DNA from: Escherichia coli
Lineage (GTDB): Bacteria; Pseudomonadota; Gammaproteobacteria; Enterobacterales; Enterobacteriaceae
NCBI GenBank assembly: GCA_902499925.1
Contig: GCA_902499925.1_4130.1
Reading direction: 5' to 3' (one strand)
DNA: 64,000 nucleotides
The notes beneath the pieces are model-generated. The model made no database searches and was not told where the DNA came from. It saw only the letters and a list, made by a program, of their open reading frames with translations. The stretch's first letter is position 1. The number at the start of each line of letters is the position of its first letter. Both the position numbers and the translations under genes were made by a program. Positions 2,062-56,806 of the stretch are shown in pieces.

Positions 2062-2304
2062 TTACAGTACTTTACTATCAATGGCAACTACTTTTTTAAC
2101 ATTAACGGCGTGGATCACTTCCTTCGTGTTTTTAGTACTGAATACTTTCGCCGCACCATTCACGACCGTGATACGATAGCGACCATTAACATCAACCATA
2201 TTAATAAAGTCCGGCGTGCTGAATGGTGTTGTTTTACATTTCAGTACTGTTAACAGTTCCACCAGCGATGTAGTTTCTTTGATACGTTTTTCTAAAGTAA
2301 TCAT
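2062..2304 (-). CDS. hypothetical protein (80 aa)
   Basis: Trimmed to Met20; RBS GGGGGAAACAAA; promoter TTGACA-17-TACTAT upstream; upstream region duplicated at 2580-2640. Confidence 0.5.
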   Translation of the reverse strand: MITLEKRIKETTSLVELLTVLKCKTTPFSTPDFINMVDVNGRYRITVVNGAAKVFSTKNTKEVIHAVNVKKVVAIDSKVL

Positions 2305-2361
2305 TTTGTTTCCCCCGTGTTGGTATGTACATATAGTACTAAAACATTTGAGTACTGTCAA

Positions 2362-2580
2362 TTAGATAATATTATATTTCTTAAAATAAAATGCGTCCTG
2401 TGTTGGTTGATACTCGATACCGTTACCGTTATTGACTTCAACTAATAAACCTTTGTCAATAAGTTTTTTAATAGTACGATACCCTTGTTGAAAATTGGTA
2501 AAATGTGAATCATTACGAAAGGTATAACCGTGCTTAACTGCTTCATCAATAGTTTTCTTTTCGATTTTAGATAATTTCAT
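2362..2580 (-). CDS. hypothetical protein (72 aa)
   Basis: Trimmed to Met20; RBS GGGAGAAACAAA; upstream leader nearly identical to that of 2062..2304. Confidence 0.5.
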   Translation of the reverse strand: MKLSKIEKKTIDEAVKHGYTFRNDSHFTNFQQGYRTIKKLIDKGLLVEVNNGNGIEYQPTQDAFYFKKYNII

Positions 2581-2633
2581 TTTGTTTCTCCCGTGTTGGT
2601 ATATGTACATAGTACTAAAACAATTGAGTACTG

Positions 2634-2888
2634 TCAACGTGATATTAGTTTTATTTTCTTATTATATTGTTGGTGTTCATATAGGTTTATCTTTCCTGTG
2701 TTCTCTATTACTATTCTGTTGTTAGTGTCTACATCGATTACACGCAGTTTTCCGTTGCTTAACTTCCTTGGTAATAGGTTACCATTAATAAACTCATTAG
2801 CAAGCTGTACGGCCTTTGTGATGATTCTCTGAGGTGCTTTATAGTGTACCCGCAAGATATTATCTTTATATAGTTGAACCTTAATCAT
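2634..2888 (-). CDS. hypothetical protein (84 aa)
   Basis: Minus ORF; RBS AGGATAAACTAAA directly after terminator hairpin of upstream gene. Confidence 0.55.
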   Translation of the reverse strand: MIKVQLYKDNILRVHYKAPQRIITKAVQLANEFINGNLLPRKLSNGKLRVIDVDTNNRIVIENTGKINLYEHQQYNKKIKLISR

Positions 2889-2902
2889 TTTAGTTTATCC
2901 TA

Positions 2903-2928
2903 TAAAAAAGGCGGGAACTGATCCCGCC
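2903..2928 (-). terminator. intrinsic terminator (hairpin GGCGGGATCAGTTCCCGCC + U-run on minus RNA)
   Basis: GC-rich inverted repeat followed by T6 in the direction of minus-strand transcription, immediately 3' of 2951..3346. Confidence 0.55.
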
Positions 2929-2950
2929 GTGTTGTTAGTACTGCAAGTTA

Positions 2951-3346
2951 TTAGATAACCTGGCGGCGTTTACTGTATACTGTTACACGATTACCCTTAC
3001 GGTCGTGTCGGATCTCTTTCTGGTTGCGAATCAGTTCACTTGGACGCTTAAGGTTTGCCAGGTGATCCGCGTGAGTCCAAGCGGTATGGTTTACCTGTAC
3101 TTTGATATCAGAACCAGCGATAAACTCATCTTGTGCGTTAAGTACTGCCGCCAGATCTTCCGCTCGTTTTAGTTCTGCTGCTGTTAGTACTGGCTCAGGT
3201 GAATTCACAATATCAGAGATCTCTTTGAACTGTACGGCCCAACGTTGGCCTTTCGGTGCATCTTTGCCCATGTCTTTAAATGCTGCTCCTTCCTCGCGTG
3301 CAACAATACGGGCAGCTTCACGGGTAGCGTAGAATTTAGTAATCAT
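2951..3346 (-). CDS. hypothetical protein (131 aa); paralog of 15602..15865
   Basis: Minus ORF, start at Met4 with AGGA RBS; shares KFYATREAARI...FKDMG...RWA...DRKGNRVTVY with 15602..15865. Confidence 0.6.
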   Translation of the reverse strand: MITKFYATREAARIVAREEGAAFKDMGKDAPKGQRWAVQFKEISDIVNSPEPVLTAAELKRAEDLAAVLNAQDEFIAGSDIKVQVNHTAWTHADHLANLKRPSELIRNQKEIRHDRKGNRVTVYSKRRQVI

Positions 3347-3441
3347 GGTATACATCCTATTAGTTAAGTTAGTACTACAAGTTAGAGTCTATTATAAAGT
3401 ACTATCTGGGCAATGTCAAATAGTACTTTAAATGGATTCTA

Positions 3442-3765
3442 TTACATGTCTTTCTTACGTTTTACATCGTAGTAGCGAACTGTTATTTCTTTGTTAATCT
3501 CTTTTTCGATGTGGTGAATAACTTTTTCTTTCGGGTTGAAACCTATAACGGTTTCTTTAATGATCTCCAAACCAGTGTATTCGCCTTGTGTGCCGTAACC
3601 GTATGTAAAGGTTTCATGTCCCAGGTCTTCCCAGCGGTCGCCAATTAACGCAGACACGTAGCAAGAGTGGTAAGTATTGCCGTGTGAATCAGTCCACCGA
3701 TTAACTTTAATGTCAAAGGAGGTTACAATTTTCAATTCTACTTTCTGGGCAAGGATCATAGCCAT
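3442..3765 (-). CDS. hypothetical protein (107 aa); paralog of 10290..10613
   Basis: Minus ORF; shares RWTDSHGNTYHSC(Y/H)VS and FTYGY motifs with 10290..10613; promoter 3822-3850 and hairpin 3789-3807 upstream. Confidence 0.6.
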   Translation of the reverse strand: MAMILAQKVELKIVTSFDIKVNRWTDSHGNTYHSCYVSALIGDRWEDLGHETFTYGYGTQGEYTGLEIIKETVIGFNPKEKVIHHIEKEINKEITVRYYDVKRKKDM

Positions 3766-3788
3766 TTTTATTTCTCTCTTTTAGTTAG

Positions 3789-51260: not shown

Positions 51261-51674
51261 TTATGCTGGTACACAATTTTTTATAATGAATACACGTTTC
51301 ATGAATGAACTTTCATATACGTACTTCAGTTTACCATTTTCACGCATACGATGAAACACATCTTTACCGCTAGTACTCCATGTTGAACCAGTCTCTGCAT
51401 CAACATTGTTCATTACACCAGATGTTACGTTCACCCCGTACTTGAAGCTAAAGGTACTACCTTCTTCTACCAGAGGGATTGGTGTACTACGTTCATGTTC
51501 CAGTACAAGTTTACTGCCGATGATGTTGTACGAAGTTAGCTTGCATTTTAAAACACCCATCTCTTGTGCAGTTGGGTAATTCTTCTCAAACAAATCAGAT
51601 ACTTCATTTGCATAACAAACTGAACTAATCATAAGAAGTAATGAACTGATAGAACGGAAAATAACTTTTAACAT
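51261..51674 (-). CDS. secreted protein with signal peptide (137 aa)
   Basis: N-terminus MLKVIFRSISSLLLMISSVCYA; RBS GGAGGCAAAC; cassette upstream. Confidence 0.6.
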   Translation of the reverse strand: MLKVIFRSISSLLLMISSVCYANEVSDLFEKNYPTAQEMGVLKCKLTSYNIIGSKLVLEHERSTPIPLVEEGSTFSFKYGVNVTSGVMNNVDAETGSTWSTSGKDVFHRMRENGKLKYVYESSFMKRVFIIKNCVPA

Positions 51675-51700
51675 GTTTGCCTCCAGTAGTTGATGAAATG

Positions 51701-51740
51701 ATTATAGCAAAAAGGGCCGACCGAAGTCAACCCTTTTCTT
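51701..51740 (-). promoter_or_regulatory. terminator-promoter cassette
   Basis: GGGTTGAC-ttcg-GTCGGCCC, T-run, TATAAT. Confidence 0.55.
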
Positions 51741-52115
51741 TTATATTTTACATGTCATGTCTGGTTTTGGCTTTTCATTCTTTGGCTTTTCAAATGGATT
51801 TGGCTTAGGGGACTTTTTATCTTTATCATCTTTAGCTTTCTTTTTGTTTTCTTTTTTATCCGATTTGTCAGCTTTGTCTTTCTTATCTTTTGAATCTTTG
51901 TCAGCTTTAGATTGTGGTTCCTCACATACAGCAGCTTTTGGCTCTGGCATATCACATGAGTTATCCACAGGTTTAATGAACTCTTTACAGTTGTAGAAGT
52001 ATAAACTTTCATTGGTAGTAAGATTGTGGAATCTAAAGGTATTTTCACCATTAGTATATACTTTCTTAGTACTCTCAATATCATTACACATTGCAACTGT
52101 GTCACCGGAATTCAT
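51741..52115 (-). CDS. protein with Cys-containing N-domain and Lys/Asp-rich tail (124 aa)
   Basis: RBS AGGTATCGAGC; overlaps stop of upstream gene; preferred over alternative-frame ORF 51755..52105. Confidence 0.5.
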   Translation of the reverse strand: MNSGDTVAMCNDIESTKKVYTNGENTFRFHNLTTNESLYFYNCKEFIKPVDNSCDMPEPKAAVCEEPQSKADKDSKDKKDKADKSDKKENKKKAKDDKDKKSPKPNPFEKPKNEKPKPDMTCKI

Positions 52116-52353
52116 GCTCGATACCTATTACATCCGACTTACGTTCAGATAGTATTCCAGACGTATATCGATCTTTGTTATCAAATGCATTGAACCCTAT
52201 AGTTTTATTATTGTCATGTACCAATCCTCTAGTGTAAGACTTGGTATAGAACTCACCGTTTCTAAACTCCTGTCTAGCAATGGAGCACTGGTATTCAGTA
52301 CTATAAACTATATCAGTAAACAATACAAGTGAAAATAAAACATATTTAAACAT
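52102..52353 (-). CDS. secreted small protein (83 aa)
   Basis: Signal-peptide-like MFKYVLFSLVLFTDIVYS; RBS AAGAGGTAATGCA. Confidence 0.55.
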   Translation of the reverse strand: MFKYVLFSLVLFTDIVYSTEYQCSIARQEFRNGEFYTKSYTRGLVHDNNKTIGFNAFDNKDRYTSGILSERKSDVIGIEHEFR

Positions 52354-52379
52354 TGCATTACCTCTTATAAAACCCTCTA

Positions 52380-52417
52380 CAATATTTACAAAAAAAGGTT
52401 GACCGAAGTCAACCTTT
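52380..52417 (-). promoter_or_regulatory. terminator-promoter cassette
   Basis: Perfect hairpin AAGGTTGAC-cgaa-GTCAACCTT, T-run, TAAATA. Confidence 0.5.
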
Positions 52418-52424
52418 TAAATGT

Positions 52425-53918
52425 TTATTTTTTATCCTTTCCAACACCACGGTCGTACTCTTTGAATGAGTTATCAAGTGTAGTTAGAGCATACTCATAT
52501 GCTTCTGGTGATTCAATGTCAACATCATCTGCACCATTTACTAAATCAGCCCAAGCCTTTTGAAGTTTACGAGCATTGTTACCAACATTATCTTTAATCC
52601 AACTAATATTTTTGTTGATACTTTTACTATCAGCACCTGCTTTTTTACCAATCTCGGATATCCACATCATTAACTTTTGAAGTTCATGAATTGATTTATC
52701 AGTCATTTCAAGATGTTCTTCTTCCATACCGTCAGTATCAGATGAACCAACGTCAATTCCATGTTTAGCTAATAGTTTACCAAGTTCAAAGAATGCAGCT
52801 TCAGCAGGGAAGTCATAACCTTTCTCTTTGTAGTTATTCCATGCACTATCAAACTCGTCAACAAAACGGTTAGCATAATCTGGATTTTTAACTAATGCTT
52901 TATATACTGCCATTGCATGTTCAAAACCTTCTTTATCTGACCCAAACTCTTCCATCTCAGGACGATGAATGTATCCATCCATATCAACGGTATCAGGTAG
53001 ATCTTCTTGCTCAGGCTCAACATCTTTCTGTTCAACTGCACCTTCTTCATCTGCACGCTTTAGATAACCATCTGGTGTTACCTTCTCACCATGTTCGGCT
53101 TCATACTTTTTCATAGTGTTGAATGCAGCATCCATAGCTGTTACGAAGCGACTTTTCTCACCTTGTACATAAGATTTAAGTGCACTGTTAACTGCATCTG
53201 ATACGAGCTTAACCTTATCGTCTTTACCTTCTAAACGGTTTTCAAGTTTAGCCAGTACATTCTTGACTTGCTGGGCATTAGCACGGTCTGCTTTACCAAT
53301 ACTATCAAAAGTTTTAAGAATACCATCAAGACTTGCTTCACCCTGTTCAGGTTCTTTGGAATCTTCTTTGTGTGTACCTTCAAGTGCACGCATGATAGTA
53401 CTGAATACTTCAGTAGGTTCAGTGCTCTTATTACCTTTCATTGCATCAAGTACAGCTTGTGCTTTACCTTTGAGTTCTTCTTTAGGAACTGCCTGTAGTG
53501 CTTTGACAATACCCTGAATCAACTGTGGTTTGTTAGCAAAGATCTTACCTAAGTTATCAGATAACTCTTTAACAGGGTTAGCTGCTTTAGGAGCTTCTGG
53601 TTTTGGTTCTTCTTTAGGAACTGCTTGTTCTTTCTCAGCACGTTCCATATCAGCAAGGCGTTGTTTCTGTGTTGCGTTAAGAAGACCTAATGAGTTAACA
53701 TAACGTAGCTTTTCTAGCTCAGTCATGTTCTCAGTACTCTTAACTGCACCTGCTTCTGCGTTTGCCTTACCAGCTAAACCTGTCCCTTGATTACGTGAAC
53801 CACGTGACCCCTGTCCTGCTTGATAACTATTTTTGCGACGATTTCGGTCGGCCCATTTATCCGAGTGTTGTACTAGTCCACCATTACGATGTTTCATATC
53901 CCCATTATCTTGTGGCAT
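52425..53918 (-). CDS. Lys/Glu-rich protein (497 aa), function unknown
   Basis: RBS AGAGGATTAAAAAT; N-terminal region shares Y(V/L)(N/D)SLGLL motif with 55282..55665. Confidence 0.65.
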   Translation of the reverse strand: MPQDNGDMKHRNGGLVQHSDKWADRNRRKNSYQAGQGSRGSRNQGTGLAGKANAEAGAVKSTENMTELEKLRYVNSLGLLNATQKQRLADMERAEKEQAVPKEEPKPEAPKAANPVKELSDNLGKIFANKPQLIQGIVKALQAVPKEELKGKAQAVLDAMKGNKSTEPTEVFSTIMRALEGTHKEDSKEPEQGEASLDGILKTFDSIGKADRANAQQVKNVLAKLENRLEGKDDKVKLVSDAVNSALKSYVQGEKSRFVTAMDAAFNTMKKYEAEHGEKVTPDGYLKRADEEGAVEQKDVEPEQEDLPDTVDMDGYIHRPEMEEFGSDKEGFEHAMAVYKALVKNPDYANRFVDEFDSAWNNYKEKGYDFPAEAAFFELGKLLAKHGIDVGSSDTDGMEEEHLEMTDKSIHELQKLMMWISEIGKKAGADSKSINKNISWIKDNVGNNARKLQKAWADLVNGADDVDIESPEAYEYALTTLDNSFKEYDRGVGKDKK

Positions 53919-53922
53919 ATTT

Positions 53923-54465
53923 TTAATCCTCTATCCATGTTTGATTGTATAAAATACGACGTATTGTTTTTTTACATACACGGTATTTATTACAATTTTC
54001 TCGTGCATATTCTATCACATCATTATAATTATCATTATAATCTTTTCTTATTTCTCTTACAATTTCCCATGTCAACACAGCAGCACCACGATTAGTTGTT
54101 GCGTTACCATGTGAATAAGAATATAGTACGTTTTCAGATGCTGTGTTCCATTCCAAATTCAAATAGTGATTGTTACTTCTATTACAATCTTTATGGTTTA
54201 TGTGAACAACTTTTTTCTTTGTTCTACTCGCCCACTGTAACTGTTTCTGTTTGGGTGGTGGTAAAAATGCTTCAGCTACTAGTCGATGAATCGCCTTTCT
54301 ATTTTTCACAGAATTGCGATACAAATCGACCTTCACATACCCATCTTTATTTTTAAATCCACAACTTATATATCCAGTTTGTTCGTTTCTTACTCTTCCA
54401 TGATCAGAAATTGAATAGTCATAATCAGGAATTAATTTCCAACGTTCCATGTTTATTTCTTCCAT
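53923..54465 (-). CDS. HNH homing endonuclease (180 aa)
   Basis: WKLIPDYDYSISDHGRVRN then HRLVAEAF and VHINHKDCNRSNNHYLNLEWNTASEN, the HNH_3 family pattern; start may be Met6. Confidence 0.8.
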   Translation of the reverse strand: MEEINMERWKLIPDYDYSISDHGRVRNEQTGYISCGFKNKDGYVKVDLYRNSVKNRKAIHRLVAEAFLPPPKQKQLQWASRTKKKVVHINHKDCNRSNNHYLNLEWNTASENVLYSYSHGNATTNRGAAVLTWEIVREIRKDYNDNYNDVIEYARENCNKYRVCKKTIRRILYNQTWIED

Positions 54466-54498
54466 TATATATAAAGGTTGACCGAAGTCAACCCTATT
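54465..54498 (-). promoter_or_regulatory. terminator-promoter cassette
   Basis: GGGTTGAC-ttcg-GTCAACC, T-run, TATATAAT. Confidence 0.5.
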
Positions 54499-54515
54499 TT
54501 CACTGTACTATACCA

Positions 54516-54812
54516 TTAGTAGTTACAGTCAGCTTTCGCTGTGAATGTTTTACTTTCTCCGCGTTGTGTGGTGATTCGTCCGAGTAAAGTAGTTTTGTCA
54601 ATAGTCATTGTAGTTAGTACTGGAACATTACCTTCAAAGTCAATAGCTTTGAAATTGTAGGTGGTTTCATTCTCCACTACACTTGGACCAAAGAGTTCAT
54701 ATGTGTTGATTTCAAGTGTGTCACCATCCGAACGCATCAGTGTACAGTCCAGATTAGGAGTAGCCAGTACAGGGAAAGCCAAACACATCATCATTGCAAT
54801 AATTAATTTCAT
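54516..54812 (-). CDS. secreted small protein (98 aa)
   Basis: Signal peptide MKLIIAMMMCLAFPVLA; RBS AGGAGAAGTGAA. Confidence 0.6.
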   Translation of the reverse strand: MKLIIAMMMCLAFPVLATPNLDCTLMRSDGDTLEINTYELFGPSVVENETTYNFKAIDFEGNVPVLTTMTIDKTTLLGRITTQRGESKTFTAKADCNY

Positions 54813-55072
54813 TTCACTTCTCCTGTTTTTTTCTTAGGATCAACCAATGACCAAATGAAGAATCCGAGAATTACAAGTACCCACAGAATCATGATAAAGA
54901 AAGCAAACAGTACAATAGTATTTGTCAAAAAGAAATACAATAGAATGTTCGACCCAATACTACATACAATCAATGCAGCTTCATGTTTAACAACACGAAT
55001 GGCTGTAATGAGTGCGGGAAGAAATCCGACAAATAACAGTACTAACGCATATAGTGATAATGTTTCAGCCAT
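54809..55072 (-). CDS. small membrane protein (87 aa)
   Basis: Two or three hydrophobic helices; RBS AAGGGATATC. Confidence 0.55.
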   Translation of the reverse strand: MAETLSLYALVLLFVGFLPALITAIRVVKHEAALIVCSIGSNILLYFFLTNTIVLFAFFIMILWVLVILGFFIWSLVDPKKKTGEVK

Positions 55073-55080
55073 GATATCCC

Positions 55081-55194
55081 TTATTTGGTTTGTTCAACAC
55101 TAGGTGTATTGATATAGGTGTCAATTGAATAACATACTGTACCAACTACAACAGCAGCGATTAGGGCAGCGATGATGAATTTAGTACCTTGCAT
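55081..55194 (-). CDS. small membrane peptide (37 aa)
   Basis: Untracked ORF MQGTKFIIAALIAAVVVGTVCY...; RBS GAGGTATTAAATT. Confidence 0.35.
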   Translation of the reverse strand: MQGTKFIIAALIAAVVVGTVCYSIDTYINTPSVEQTK

Positions 55195-55241
55195 AATTTA
55201 ATACCTCACGTTGTTTGTATTTTGTATCACTTGATGAAAAT

Positions 55242-55280
55242 ATTATACGACAAAGGGCTGACCGAAGTCAACCCCTTTTA
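55242..55280 (-). promoter_or_regulatory. terminator-promoter cassette
   Basis: GGGGTTGAC-ttcg-GTCAGCCC, T-run, TATAAT. Confidence 0.55.
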
Positions 55281-55281
55281 A

Positions 55282-55665
55282 TTATTTTTTAAACTTATGT
55301 TTTTCGCCTTCAATAGAGTTCACGATGTCATCATGAATCTTGCGAAGGTTATGAGTTTTCTTTAGTGCTTCATGTAGTGCACGGAATGCTGCGTGTACTG
55401 TTGCCTTGAAGTGCTCTTTAGGAGTCACTTTAAGTTTCTCAATGATATCACGTACATAAATTGGATGATCTTCAAATACACGATTCAATTCATGGCCTAG
55501 TGATTCTAGACTGAAAGCTTTTTCACGTGAAGGACGATCATGTGCAAGACTTTGGTCAGGCTTTAGTAGACCTAGTGAATCAAGATACTTATGCTTATGT
55601 GCATTATCAATTCCAGAAATATCCACATCATGCGATGGATCTTTCTTATTCCATTTATCAACCAT
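55282..55665 (-). CDS. hypothetical protein (127 aa); N-terminal motif shared with 52425..53918
   Basis: RBS AAGGAGTATGAA. Confidence 0.6.
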   Translation of the reverse strand: MVDKWNKKDPSHDVDISGIDNAHKHKYLDSLGLLKPDQSLAHDRPSREKAFSLESLGHELNRVFEDHPIYVRDIIEKLKVTPKEHFKATVHAAFRALHEALKKTHNLRKIHDDIVNSIEGEKHKFKK

Positions 55666-55776
55666 TTCATACTCCTTAAAGAGATAAATTACTTTAATAT
55701 TTATACTTCATGTGCTGTTTATTTCTACAGACACTTAAGATTATATCACATATGAAATGGTTGTTCCAAAGTCAAA

Positions 55777-56220
55777 TCAGTACTGCTTAAGTTCTGAACT
55801 GAAGATAAAGGAATCCATATCTTCTAGTGTTAACTTCAAGTCCGGTGTGTACTTTAATATCACACATTCAGGTTTCTTAATGGCAGCTTGATAGGCAGCA
55901 ATTGCCAACTGTTGAAGCTGCTCTGGTGTGTAGTTCATGCGTTCTGCATTGAATACGATGTTCTTAATATCACCACCAGGTAGCTTCTCAAACTCACGCA
56001 TAACAGCAGCCATCACATCATCAGATGTATTCTTATAAGCCCAATGAGGTAGTTGCATAACGTCATAAATCTCGCCATTGTCGTTCATAAGAGAGATCCA
56101 TTTTTTACAGTCCGATGAACTAAACAGACGACCTTTAATAGCAATGTTCTCTACCAAATTAACAAAGGCAAATATGTCTTGCTCATTTAGTTCAATGCTA
56201 TTAACGTTAATCCAACCCAT
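55777..56220 (-). CDS. hypothetical protein (147 aa)
   Basis: RBS GGAGATGAAGT. Confidence 0.6.
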   Translation of the reverse strand: MGWINVNSIELNEQDIFAFVNLVENIAIKGRLFSSSDCKKWISLMNDNGEIYDVMQLPHWAYKNTSDDVMAAVMREFEKLPGGDIKNIVFNAERMNYTPEQLQQLAIAAYQAAIKKPECVILKYTPDLKLTLEDMDSFIFSSELKQY

Positions 56221-56233
56221 ACTTCATCTCCAG

Positions 56234-56806
56234 TTATAAATCACGAACGACATTCATTAAACACAATTTGGGCTTTATCGCATTCAAAACCCATATGCAT
56301 TCTTTGTAAGTTGCTATTATAGCATCTAAATGCTCAGTTACAATGCTTTCTTGAAAATATTCTTCTTCATTGAGCTTTGCTAAATTAGTCACATCACATG
56401 TAGGTACTATAGTTCTGGATTGTACACCCATTCCATTATTGATATTGGTAAAATGTAAAAATTTGTACTTCACCACACCGTTATCTACACTTATGATACA
56501 TGTCAAATGTTCCAACTCAGTTAGTTCGGTATTACAAGTGACATGGATGAATCCAGCATTATAGGCTCTATAATCATCTACTAATATCTCAAAATCATTA
56601 CGTTCAAATATAAGTGAAATGAGTTTGTCTTGTGGTTTAACCTTCTGAAATTTTAACGAATTTACGTATGATACTTTAATCTTAGATGAAATTATCTTTT
56701 TACTAAGTGCAGTTAATTCTTCTTTAGCCTTAAAAGTTAAAGTTATAGGTCTAAATCTAGAACTTTTGTTCTTCTTTGATACTTTGAACTTACCTTTTCT
56801 ATTCAT
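56234..56806 (-). CDS. hypothetical protein (190 aa)
   Basis: Minus ORF; basic N-terminus. Confidence 0.55.
   Translation of the reverse strand: MNRKGKFKVSKKNKSSRFRPITLTFKAKEELTALSKKIISSKIKVSYVNSLKFQKVKPQDKLISLIFERNDFEILVDDYRAYNAGFIHVTCNTELTELEHLTCIISVDNGVVKYKFLHFTNINNGMGVQSRTIVPTCDVTNLAKLNEEEYFQESIVTEHLDAIIATYKECIWVLNAIKPKLCLMNVVRDL

Follow-up and report, generated by a model that had tools for sequence, protein, structure and literature searches.

A predicted HNH endonuclease gene that lies between small genes of a jumbo phage raises the question of whether it is a homing endonuclease gene that still moves between genomes and reshapes the sequence around it, or whether it is a passenger, a domesticated gene, or a remnant. 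We studied it in a window of 64,000 nucleotides (the whole stretch of DNA that was analyzed), which by sequence comparison belongs to an Asteriusvirus (121Q/PBECO4-like jumbo coliphage). Our analysis suggests that the gene is probably a free-standing, I-HmuI-like HNH homing endonuclease gene that is mobile now, or was so very recently, among Rak2-like jumbo phages. The positions of the features are collected in Table 1.

Table 1. Features at and around the HNH gene; positions are those of the window unless a contig or phage is named
Feature	Position	Strand	Details
HNH homing endonuclease gene (predicted)	53923..54450	-	175 aa from probable start ATG 54450; ATG 54465 adds 5 codons
HNH protein parts			NUMOD4 aa 7-49; HNH_3 aa 58-113; three-helix HTH-like domain aa 133-172
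Virion structural protein gene	52425..53918	-	497 aa; 121Q gp201 family, PHROG 20398
Co-converted 5' end of structural gene (putative)	53812..53918	-	first ~100-107 nt, ~33 codons
Three small genes of the island	54516..55251	-	98 aa 54516..54812; 87 aa 54809..55072; 37 aa 55081..55194
121Q counterpart of small-gene region	L003 (121Q) 3514-3782
Sigma-70-like (early-type) promoter of HNH gene	54464..54491	-	-35 hexamer inside hairpin
Hairpin GGTTGAC-CGAA-GTCAACC	54476..54493	.	UUCG loop on minus-strand RNA
Cassette hairpins (18 nt each)	8696, 44655, 47353, 52397, 54476, 55256, 58850	-
ATAAATA copies	23357-23363; 53984-53990; 55698-55704	+; -; -
ATAAATA late-promoter-like heptamer	53984..53990	-	within 3' end of HNH ORF (codons N-K-Y)
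Alternative endonuclease gene	L004 (TH47) 2599..3783; L006 (UB) 2225..2998	-; -
ParE_like 80-aa gene	L012 585-827; L016 (GAP32_031) 1193-1435

The open reading frame (ORF) listing of the window contains an intact ORF of 180 amino acids on the minus strand (53923..54465), in which both motif strings reported by the initial annotation, WKLIPDYDYSISDHGRVRN and VHINHKDCNRSNNHYLNLEWNTASEN, are found verbatim. That annotation had called the product an HNH endonuclease, a call that the lack of an HNH domain would undo. The HMM search found HNH_3 (PF13392; aa 58-113, 31.3 bits against a curated Pfam cut-off of 24.8) as well as NUMOD4 (aa 7-49, 30.6 bits against 23.4), both above threshold, and the ORF matches PHROG 59, “HNH endonuclease” (E = 2.4e-37), the name that the database copy of the protein (P0001) already bears. 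Domain and catalytic residue positions are given here in the numbering of the 180-aa ORF, so that His91 is His86 of a 175-aa form described below. An AlphaFold model, built with 28 homologues as input (mean pLDDT, 88), has five beta strands within aa 9-58 of the N-terminal part (pLDDT > 90), an HNH core in which strands 88-91 and 104-107 are followed by helix 109-118 (beta-beta-alpha), and a C-terminal bundle of three helices (133-146, 150-161, and 165-172) with weak homeodomain-like matches. I-HmuI (1u3e) is both the sole PDB sequence match (E = 2.2e-5, aligned at aa 8-127) and the only significant fold match in the PDB, where Foldseek aligned 1u3e_M over 178 columns, approximately the full length (E = 1e-7, probability of 1.00), and the next match had an E value of 0.32.

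Catalytic His91, Asn99, and Asn103 show no variation across 28 aligned homologues. The residue before the catalytic His is Asn90 where I-HmuI has Asp-His, and thus the Asp looked for at this position was not found. The same Asn precedes the catalytic His in at least 90% of the 28 aligned subfamily members, and the Asn-His pair appears to be a trait of the subfamily rather than a lesion. Its reading as the sign of a dead enzyme was rejected because Asn is the subfamily norm and dN/dS is low: between the HNH gene of the window and its 84%-identical homologue in L007, a metagenomic contig, dN/dS is 0.086 (dS, 1.09), similar to the value for the adjoining structural gene in the same pair (0.076). 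Given this low ratio, the HNH gene therefore seems to encode a constrained protein and not a decaying remnant. No paralogue of the protein was found by tblastn against the whole window, and an Rfam scan of positions 51500-56500 returned no group I or group II intron even at E values of up to 1. With a promoter on one side and the ATG of the next gene on the other, the HNH gene forms an ORF of its own, embedded neither in an intron nor in an intein.

The ORF bounds given by the initial annotation were correct in part: the ORF 53923..54465 exists, while its start codon probably has to be moved. The best sigma-70-like promoter near the gene (TTGACT-16-TATAAT, running from 54491 to 54464 and agreeing with the consensus at 11 of 12 positions) has a -10 hexamer that overlaps the first ATG (54465). 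Because of this overlap, the real start is most likely the second ATG at 54450 (MERWK..., 175 aa). The protein in database entry P0001 and the one annotated in Escherichia phage EC.P1 are likewise 175 aa long.

The hairpin that holds the -35 hexamer also closes the upstream 98-aa gene in the manner of a terminator and forms the junction of the HNH insertion on its upstream side, and it is one copy of a recurring cassette. This cassette consists of an 18-nt hairpin (GGTTGAC-TTCG-GTCAACC) with a -35-like TTGACT in its 5' arm and a TATAAT 16 to 18 nt on; its consensus reads GG(T/C)TGAC-UUCG-GUCA(A/G)CC, then TTTTTG(T/C)TATAAT, often with ATTTCATC. It combines, in a single element, a hairpin of terminator-like form with a promoter of early type. 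Seven copies of the hairpin occur in the window against 0.01 expected, in agreement with the earlier description of the HNH gene as lying between small genes separated by cassettes. All genes around the HNH site are on the minus strand, many of them divided by a cassette, and the promoter architecture is common to other cassettes and to alleles without the HNH gene. Around one cassette, a 45-nt stretch (55252-55296) has about 91% identity with both Erwinia phage pEa_SNUABM_12 and Cronobacter phage GAP32, in which the genes flanking it show no detectable DNA similarity; the cassette is thus conserved across genera. In a search for a larger RNA structure at the HNH start, the hairpin was stable, but the 76-nt region was no stabler than shuffled sequences (z = -0.62), so that a larger regulatory RNA structure there finds no support. 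The only match of the Rfam scan was a weak one to the Salmonella sRNA STnc390 (52385-52437, minus strand; 25 bits against a gathering threshold of 50; E = 0.033), located at the hairpin cassette that lies downstream of the structural gene; it is below the threshold and most likely due to chance.

Among isolated phages, the gene is rare and the site is mostly empty. The region is 98.8% identical to EC.P1 and about 98.5% identical to eight other phages (BF17, WPEC3, WPEC5, fEgEco12, CMSTMSU, vB_Ec-M-J, Turkey3, and Ecwhy_1), with 121Q and PBECO4 as more-distant Asteriusvirus relatives. EC.P1 alone among 50,697 phage records encodes the HNH protein, at a frequency of 1 in about 42 Asteriusvirus records, and the next match, in Klebsiella phage KP13-7, is at most 41.5% identical. 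The eight relatives at about 98.5% align to the region as two pieces that skip the HNH gene. A 241-nt probe for the empty site of BF17 is uninterrupted in 37 of 39 matching records, which span E. coli and Salmonella Asteriusviruses to Klebsiella Rak2-like phages, and it is split only in EC.P1.

The comparison of flanking genes in related phages that had been proposed as a check revealed presence/absence polymorphism in three independent pairs: (i) the window and EC.P1 versus the eight HNH-less Asteriusviruses, (ii) contigs L008/L009 versus Erwinia phage Hallingskeid, and (iii) contig L012 versus Cronobacter phage GAP32. The Hallingskeid backbone is 89% identical to that of L008/L009 and has no HNH gene, and the first ~70 nt of the structural gene are diverged between them. 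GAP32 lacks the gene that L012 carries, a pair which at about 72% identity is too diverged for breakpoints and is used for presence/absence only. Upstream of the HNH site, the GAP32-like lineage has a gene for an 80-aa protein with a ParE_like Pfam match.

Where junctions can be placed, they are sharp. Alignment and BLAST of the window against HNH-less BF17 show a clean replacement, in which identity resumes at 54473, at the hairpin, and the HNH gene is inserted downstream of the hairpin/promoter cassette, ahead of the structural gene's ATG. Over its first ~100 nt, the structural gene of the window is close to that of L007 and strongly unlike those of BF17, 121Q, and JNE01, whereas from nt ~97-103 on the window is identical to BF17 and unlike L007. 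The window is thus a BF17-like backbone in which a donor segment reaches from the hairpin into the structural gene, as far as about codon 33.

The same picture emerges on a larger scale from public contigs. The exact 175-aa protein is encoded on at least 24 of them; its gene is full length in each and invariably has the 98-aa gene on one side and the structural gene on the other. Ten contexts were examined, and six of them have a backbone with only about 82% identity to the window; in these six backbones an island of ~1.4 kb (~53812 to ~55251) is nevertheless 99.8-100% identical to it, with 0 or 1 difference per 50 nt inside the island versus 5 to 16 outside. Within the island lie the HNH gene, the genes of 37, 87, and 98 aa, and the first part of the structural gene; the island ends at the cassette at 55256-55273. 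On the downstream side, donor-type sequence stops at nt ~100-107 of the structural gene both in the window and in L017-type backbones, whereas in L024 it continues to nt ~517; upstream, the donor tract stops at a hairpin cassette. Sharply bounded donor tracts of variable length at an endonuclease gene are what homing by double-strand-break or nick repair would be expected to leave behind. This island, together with another endonuclease gene at the same site in phages TH47 and UB (see below), supports the suggestion of a site of mobility at the gene and of its contribution to mosaicism. Local variation also exists without an HNH gene: the 87-aa gene (predicted membrane protein) and the 98-aa gene (signal-peptide-like product) are missing from 121Q and replaced in TH47 and UB, while the BF17 group and the window possess both. 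This adds another level of indel variation beside the HNH site.

The HNH gene and the structural gene are closely associated, with a spacer of only 4 nt between the stop codon of the former and the ATG of the latter. The closest homologues, P0002 (84% identical), P0004 (58%), P0005 (57%), and P0006 (53%) form a clade with P0001, and in all five lineages (53-99% identity) the gene lies 1 to 10 bp upstream of the same gene family. A 13-residue insertion, QKQLQWASRTKKK, before the HNH strand (predicted helix 73-80) is found in this clade only, the other aligned relatives being without it. Homologues with at most 44% identity, of which KP13-7 and P0007 were checked, have other genomic contexts. 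Scanned with the clade alignment, the metagenome contigs of IMG/VR and JGI yielded no clade member other than a contig already known, every other match being at most 45% identical.

The structural-gene family has a conserved N terminus (MPGxFxDKNGG.MAGHSxRW..NRR..S..AGQGSxGSRNxGTG), and its length varies among relatives (418, 419, 497, 509, and 614 aa) via internal indels. We considered the diverged N-terminal allele next to the HNH gene as a simple immunity allele. This idea is weakened by the P0005 homologue, which adjoins the “susceptible-type” allele MPGQFTDKNGGNMAGHSD, the “empty” allele of E. coli phages; a picture of a single target and a single immunity is therefore too neat. Residues ~60 to 180 of the 497-aa protein have a paralogue in a 127-aa virion structural protein (55282..55665, minus strand; 121Q gp199 family, PHROG 16530). 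On the other side of the structural gene, a 124-aa ORF (51741..52115, minus strand) has a C-terminal half that is extremely rich in Lys and Asp (KDKKDKADKSDKKENKKKAKDDKDKK...), and it overlaps an 83-aa ORF (52102..52353) by 14 nt at the end of the latter.

In TH47 and UB, an unrelated putative endonuclease gene (394 and 257 aa, respectively) occupies the HNH site, and the 5' end of the structural gene is diverged as well. The protein has CapR-homology repeats, a treble-clef zinc finger, and a MUG113/T5orf172-like C terminus, and it matches PHROG 681, “endonuclease”. Homologues of this alternative endonuclease are present in several copies per genome in Rak2, K64-1, and KP13-7.

In Rak2-like phages, ATAAATA is the predicted late-promoter consensus before structural genes (PMC5259590, CBB paper). 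This heptamer is depleted about 15-fold in the window (3 copies versus 44.3 ± 6.5 expected), where every copy is 28 to 72 nt upstream of a gene start; TATAAATA occurs twice against 13.6 expected. If ATAAATA is a T4-like late promoter that is avoided elsewhere, such a pattern is expected. One copy is located within the HNH ORF, 66-72 nt upstream of the ATG of the structural gene, and ATAAATA is likewise inside the HNH ORF in L007, L008/L009, and L011. In HNH-less alleles, the hairpin with the -35 and the -10 hexamer are followed by TATAAATA, ~50 nt upstream of the ATG of the structural gene. Upstream of the structural gene, every allele compared keeps such a heptamer; in L012 there is none within 100 nt. 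The ATAAATA at the 3' coding end of the HNH gene is thus a candidate replacement for the displaced late promoter, although it coincides with conserved N/D-K-Y codons, which counts against a promoter reading.

These observations suggest the following mechanism. The HNH enzyme would be made early and, in a mixed infection, would bind an extended stretch of the HNH-less allele, placed at some point from the hairpin to structural-gene nt ~100. I-HmuI is a nickase, and the enzyme of the window may nick or cut at the HNH-less site. Recombinational repair from the HNH-carrying genome would then copy the gene together with its flanks: in every case the structural gene's first ~100 to ~520 nt, and often also the upstream block of three small genes. 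A carrier allele would be immune by virtue of a split site and a different 5' coding sequence, and the structural gene would stay expressed because the ATAAATA within the final 70 nt of the HNH ORF probably takes the place of the displaced late promoter.

Mobility does not by itself require nuclease activity. The HNH gene might be passive cargo, a moron-like insert moved by ordinary homologous recombination at the conserved cassettes and at the conserved NRRKNS...GQGSRGSRNQGTG coding block without involvement of the nuclease. The hairpin cassette, with its seven copies and its conservation across genera, the position of both insertion junctions in conserved sequence, and the variable presence of the adjoining small genes where there is no HNH gene are all compatible with this explanation, and conserved cassettes could support such recombination, so that part of the island pattern is perhaps not nuclease driven. 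We nevertheless consider passive transfer unlikely, because an intact nuclease with a dN/dS of 0.086 and conserved catalytic residues is hard to explain if its activity is irrelevant, because in each of five diverged lineages the gene sits at exactly the same place next to one particular gene, and because a second, unrelated endonuclease family at the site points to nuclease-targeted insertion rather than to random shuffling of cassettes.

A homing enzyme may also have been put to other use. If the HNH protein served mainly to exclude coinfecting relatives or to regulate the structural gene, homing would be a side effect or a thing of the past. CapR is a precedent for a regulator derived from an endonuclease and domesticated, and the alternative occupant of the site has a CapR homology domain; the tight coupling through a 4-nt spacer, the deep conservation of the association (dS of ~1 for both the HNH and the structural genes), and purifying selection on the HNH gene would likewise fit a domesticated protein. 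On the other hand, the gene is dispensable, since most members of the phage group lack it, and its recent lateral spread with flanking markers is a signature of homing; moreover, exclusion of competitors by cutting would be mechanistically the same as homing and hence no alternative to it. Domestication as the main role is thus quite improbable. Still less credible, to a degree that we would give it very little weight, is an inactive remnant, that is, a once-mobile endonuclease gene at a late stage of the homing cycle that has lost its activity and is decaying. The Asn in place of Asp before the catalytic His and the infrequency of the gene among isolates would suit such a stage, but the Asn-His motif is the family norm, every copy has a full-length ORF, dN/dS is 0.086, and the near-identical island in diverged backbones indicates very recent transfer.

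The preferred reading, then, is that of an active-looking, predicted homing endonuclease gene. A further-reaching version, which we put forward tentatively and to which we give somewhat less than an even chance, is that the HNH clade is a specialist that tracks the promoter-proximal 5' end of the structural gene across the Rak2-like radiation (Escherichia, Erwinia, and Cronobacter-type phages), with its own late promoter, a CapR/T5orf172 competitor, and the dragging of three small genes across ~82% identical lineages. If this were true, the HNH gene would be a driver of accessory-gene exchange in jumbo phages.

For jumbo phages, whose homing elements have so far been known as annotation entries only, the locus would provide a natural and well-documented case of homing, with defined empty and filled alleles, mapped co-conversion tracts, and hitchhiking neighbor genes. 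Mobility of the HNH gene would explain a local patch of mosaicism in Asteriusvirus genomes, and the alleles offer an interval of ~185 bp in which the recognition site of a new HNH specificity may lie. The embedded promoter, if true, would be a case of a selfish gene that limits its cost to the host phage. The current understanding of homing endonucleases is unchanged by these findings.

HNH homing endonuclease genes have been annotated in Rak2-like phages before (CBB_420 along with CBB_528 and CBB_535 in CBB, and others in Rak2 and GAP32; PMC5259590). They share the phage group and the general class with the gene of the window and are set beside it by annotation alone. The nearest deposited homologue outside EC.P1, that of KP13-7 (≤41.5%), differs from it in genomic context. 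The CapR-domain/T5orf172 (GIY-YIG-superfamily) endonucleases resemble it in using the same intergenic site at the same structural gene with a diverged 5' end, whereas their protein family is unrelated to the HNH protein. T4-like phages also have free-standing homing endonucleases, among them MobE and further Mob enzymes of the HNH type and the GIY-YIG enzymes SegA to SegG (reviewed by Edgell, Gibb, and Belfort in 2010, as cited in PMC5259590). Like the gene of the window, Mob and Seg genes are inserted between conserved genes, are present or absent among close relatives, co-convert their flanks in variable tracts, and have promoter arrangements that keep the neighbors expressed. In contrast, the window gene resides in Rak2-like jumbo phages, its probable target is the 5' end or upstream region of a structural gene and not a nucleotide-metabolism gene, and its predicted enzyme has no sequence relationship with theirs beyond the HNH superfamily.

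The closest known system is that of the HNH_3/NUMOD4 homing endonucleases, to which I-HmuI of Bacillus phage SPO1, I-HmuII, I-BasI, and I-TwoI belong. The gene for I-HmuI sits within a group I intron of a DNA polymerase gene, whereas the gene of the window is free-standing and intergenic. The two proteins are only about 23% identical; the equivalent of I-HmuI Asp74, reportedly a metal ligand, is Asn in the window protein, and the clade of the window has the 13-residue insertion. They nevertheless share the antiparallel beta-sheet of NUMOD4, a beta-beta-alpha-metal HNH core in which the catalytic His and Asn residues align, and a C-terminal helical/HTH domain, and the HNH gene of the window thus appears to be a fresh representative of a familiar class.
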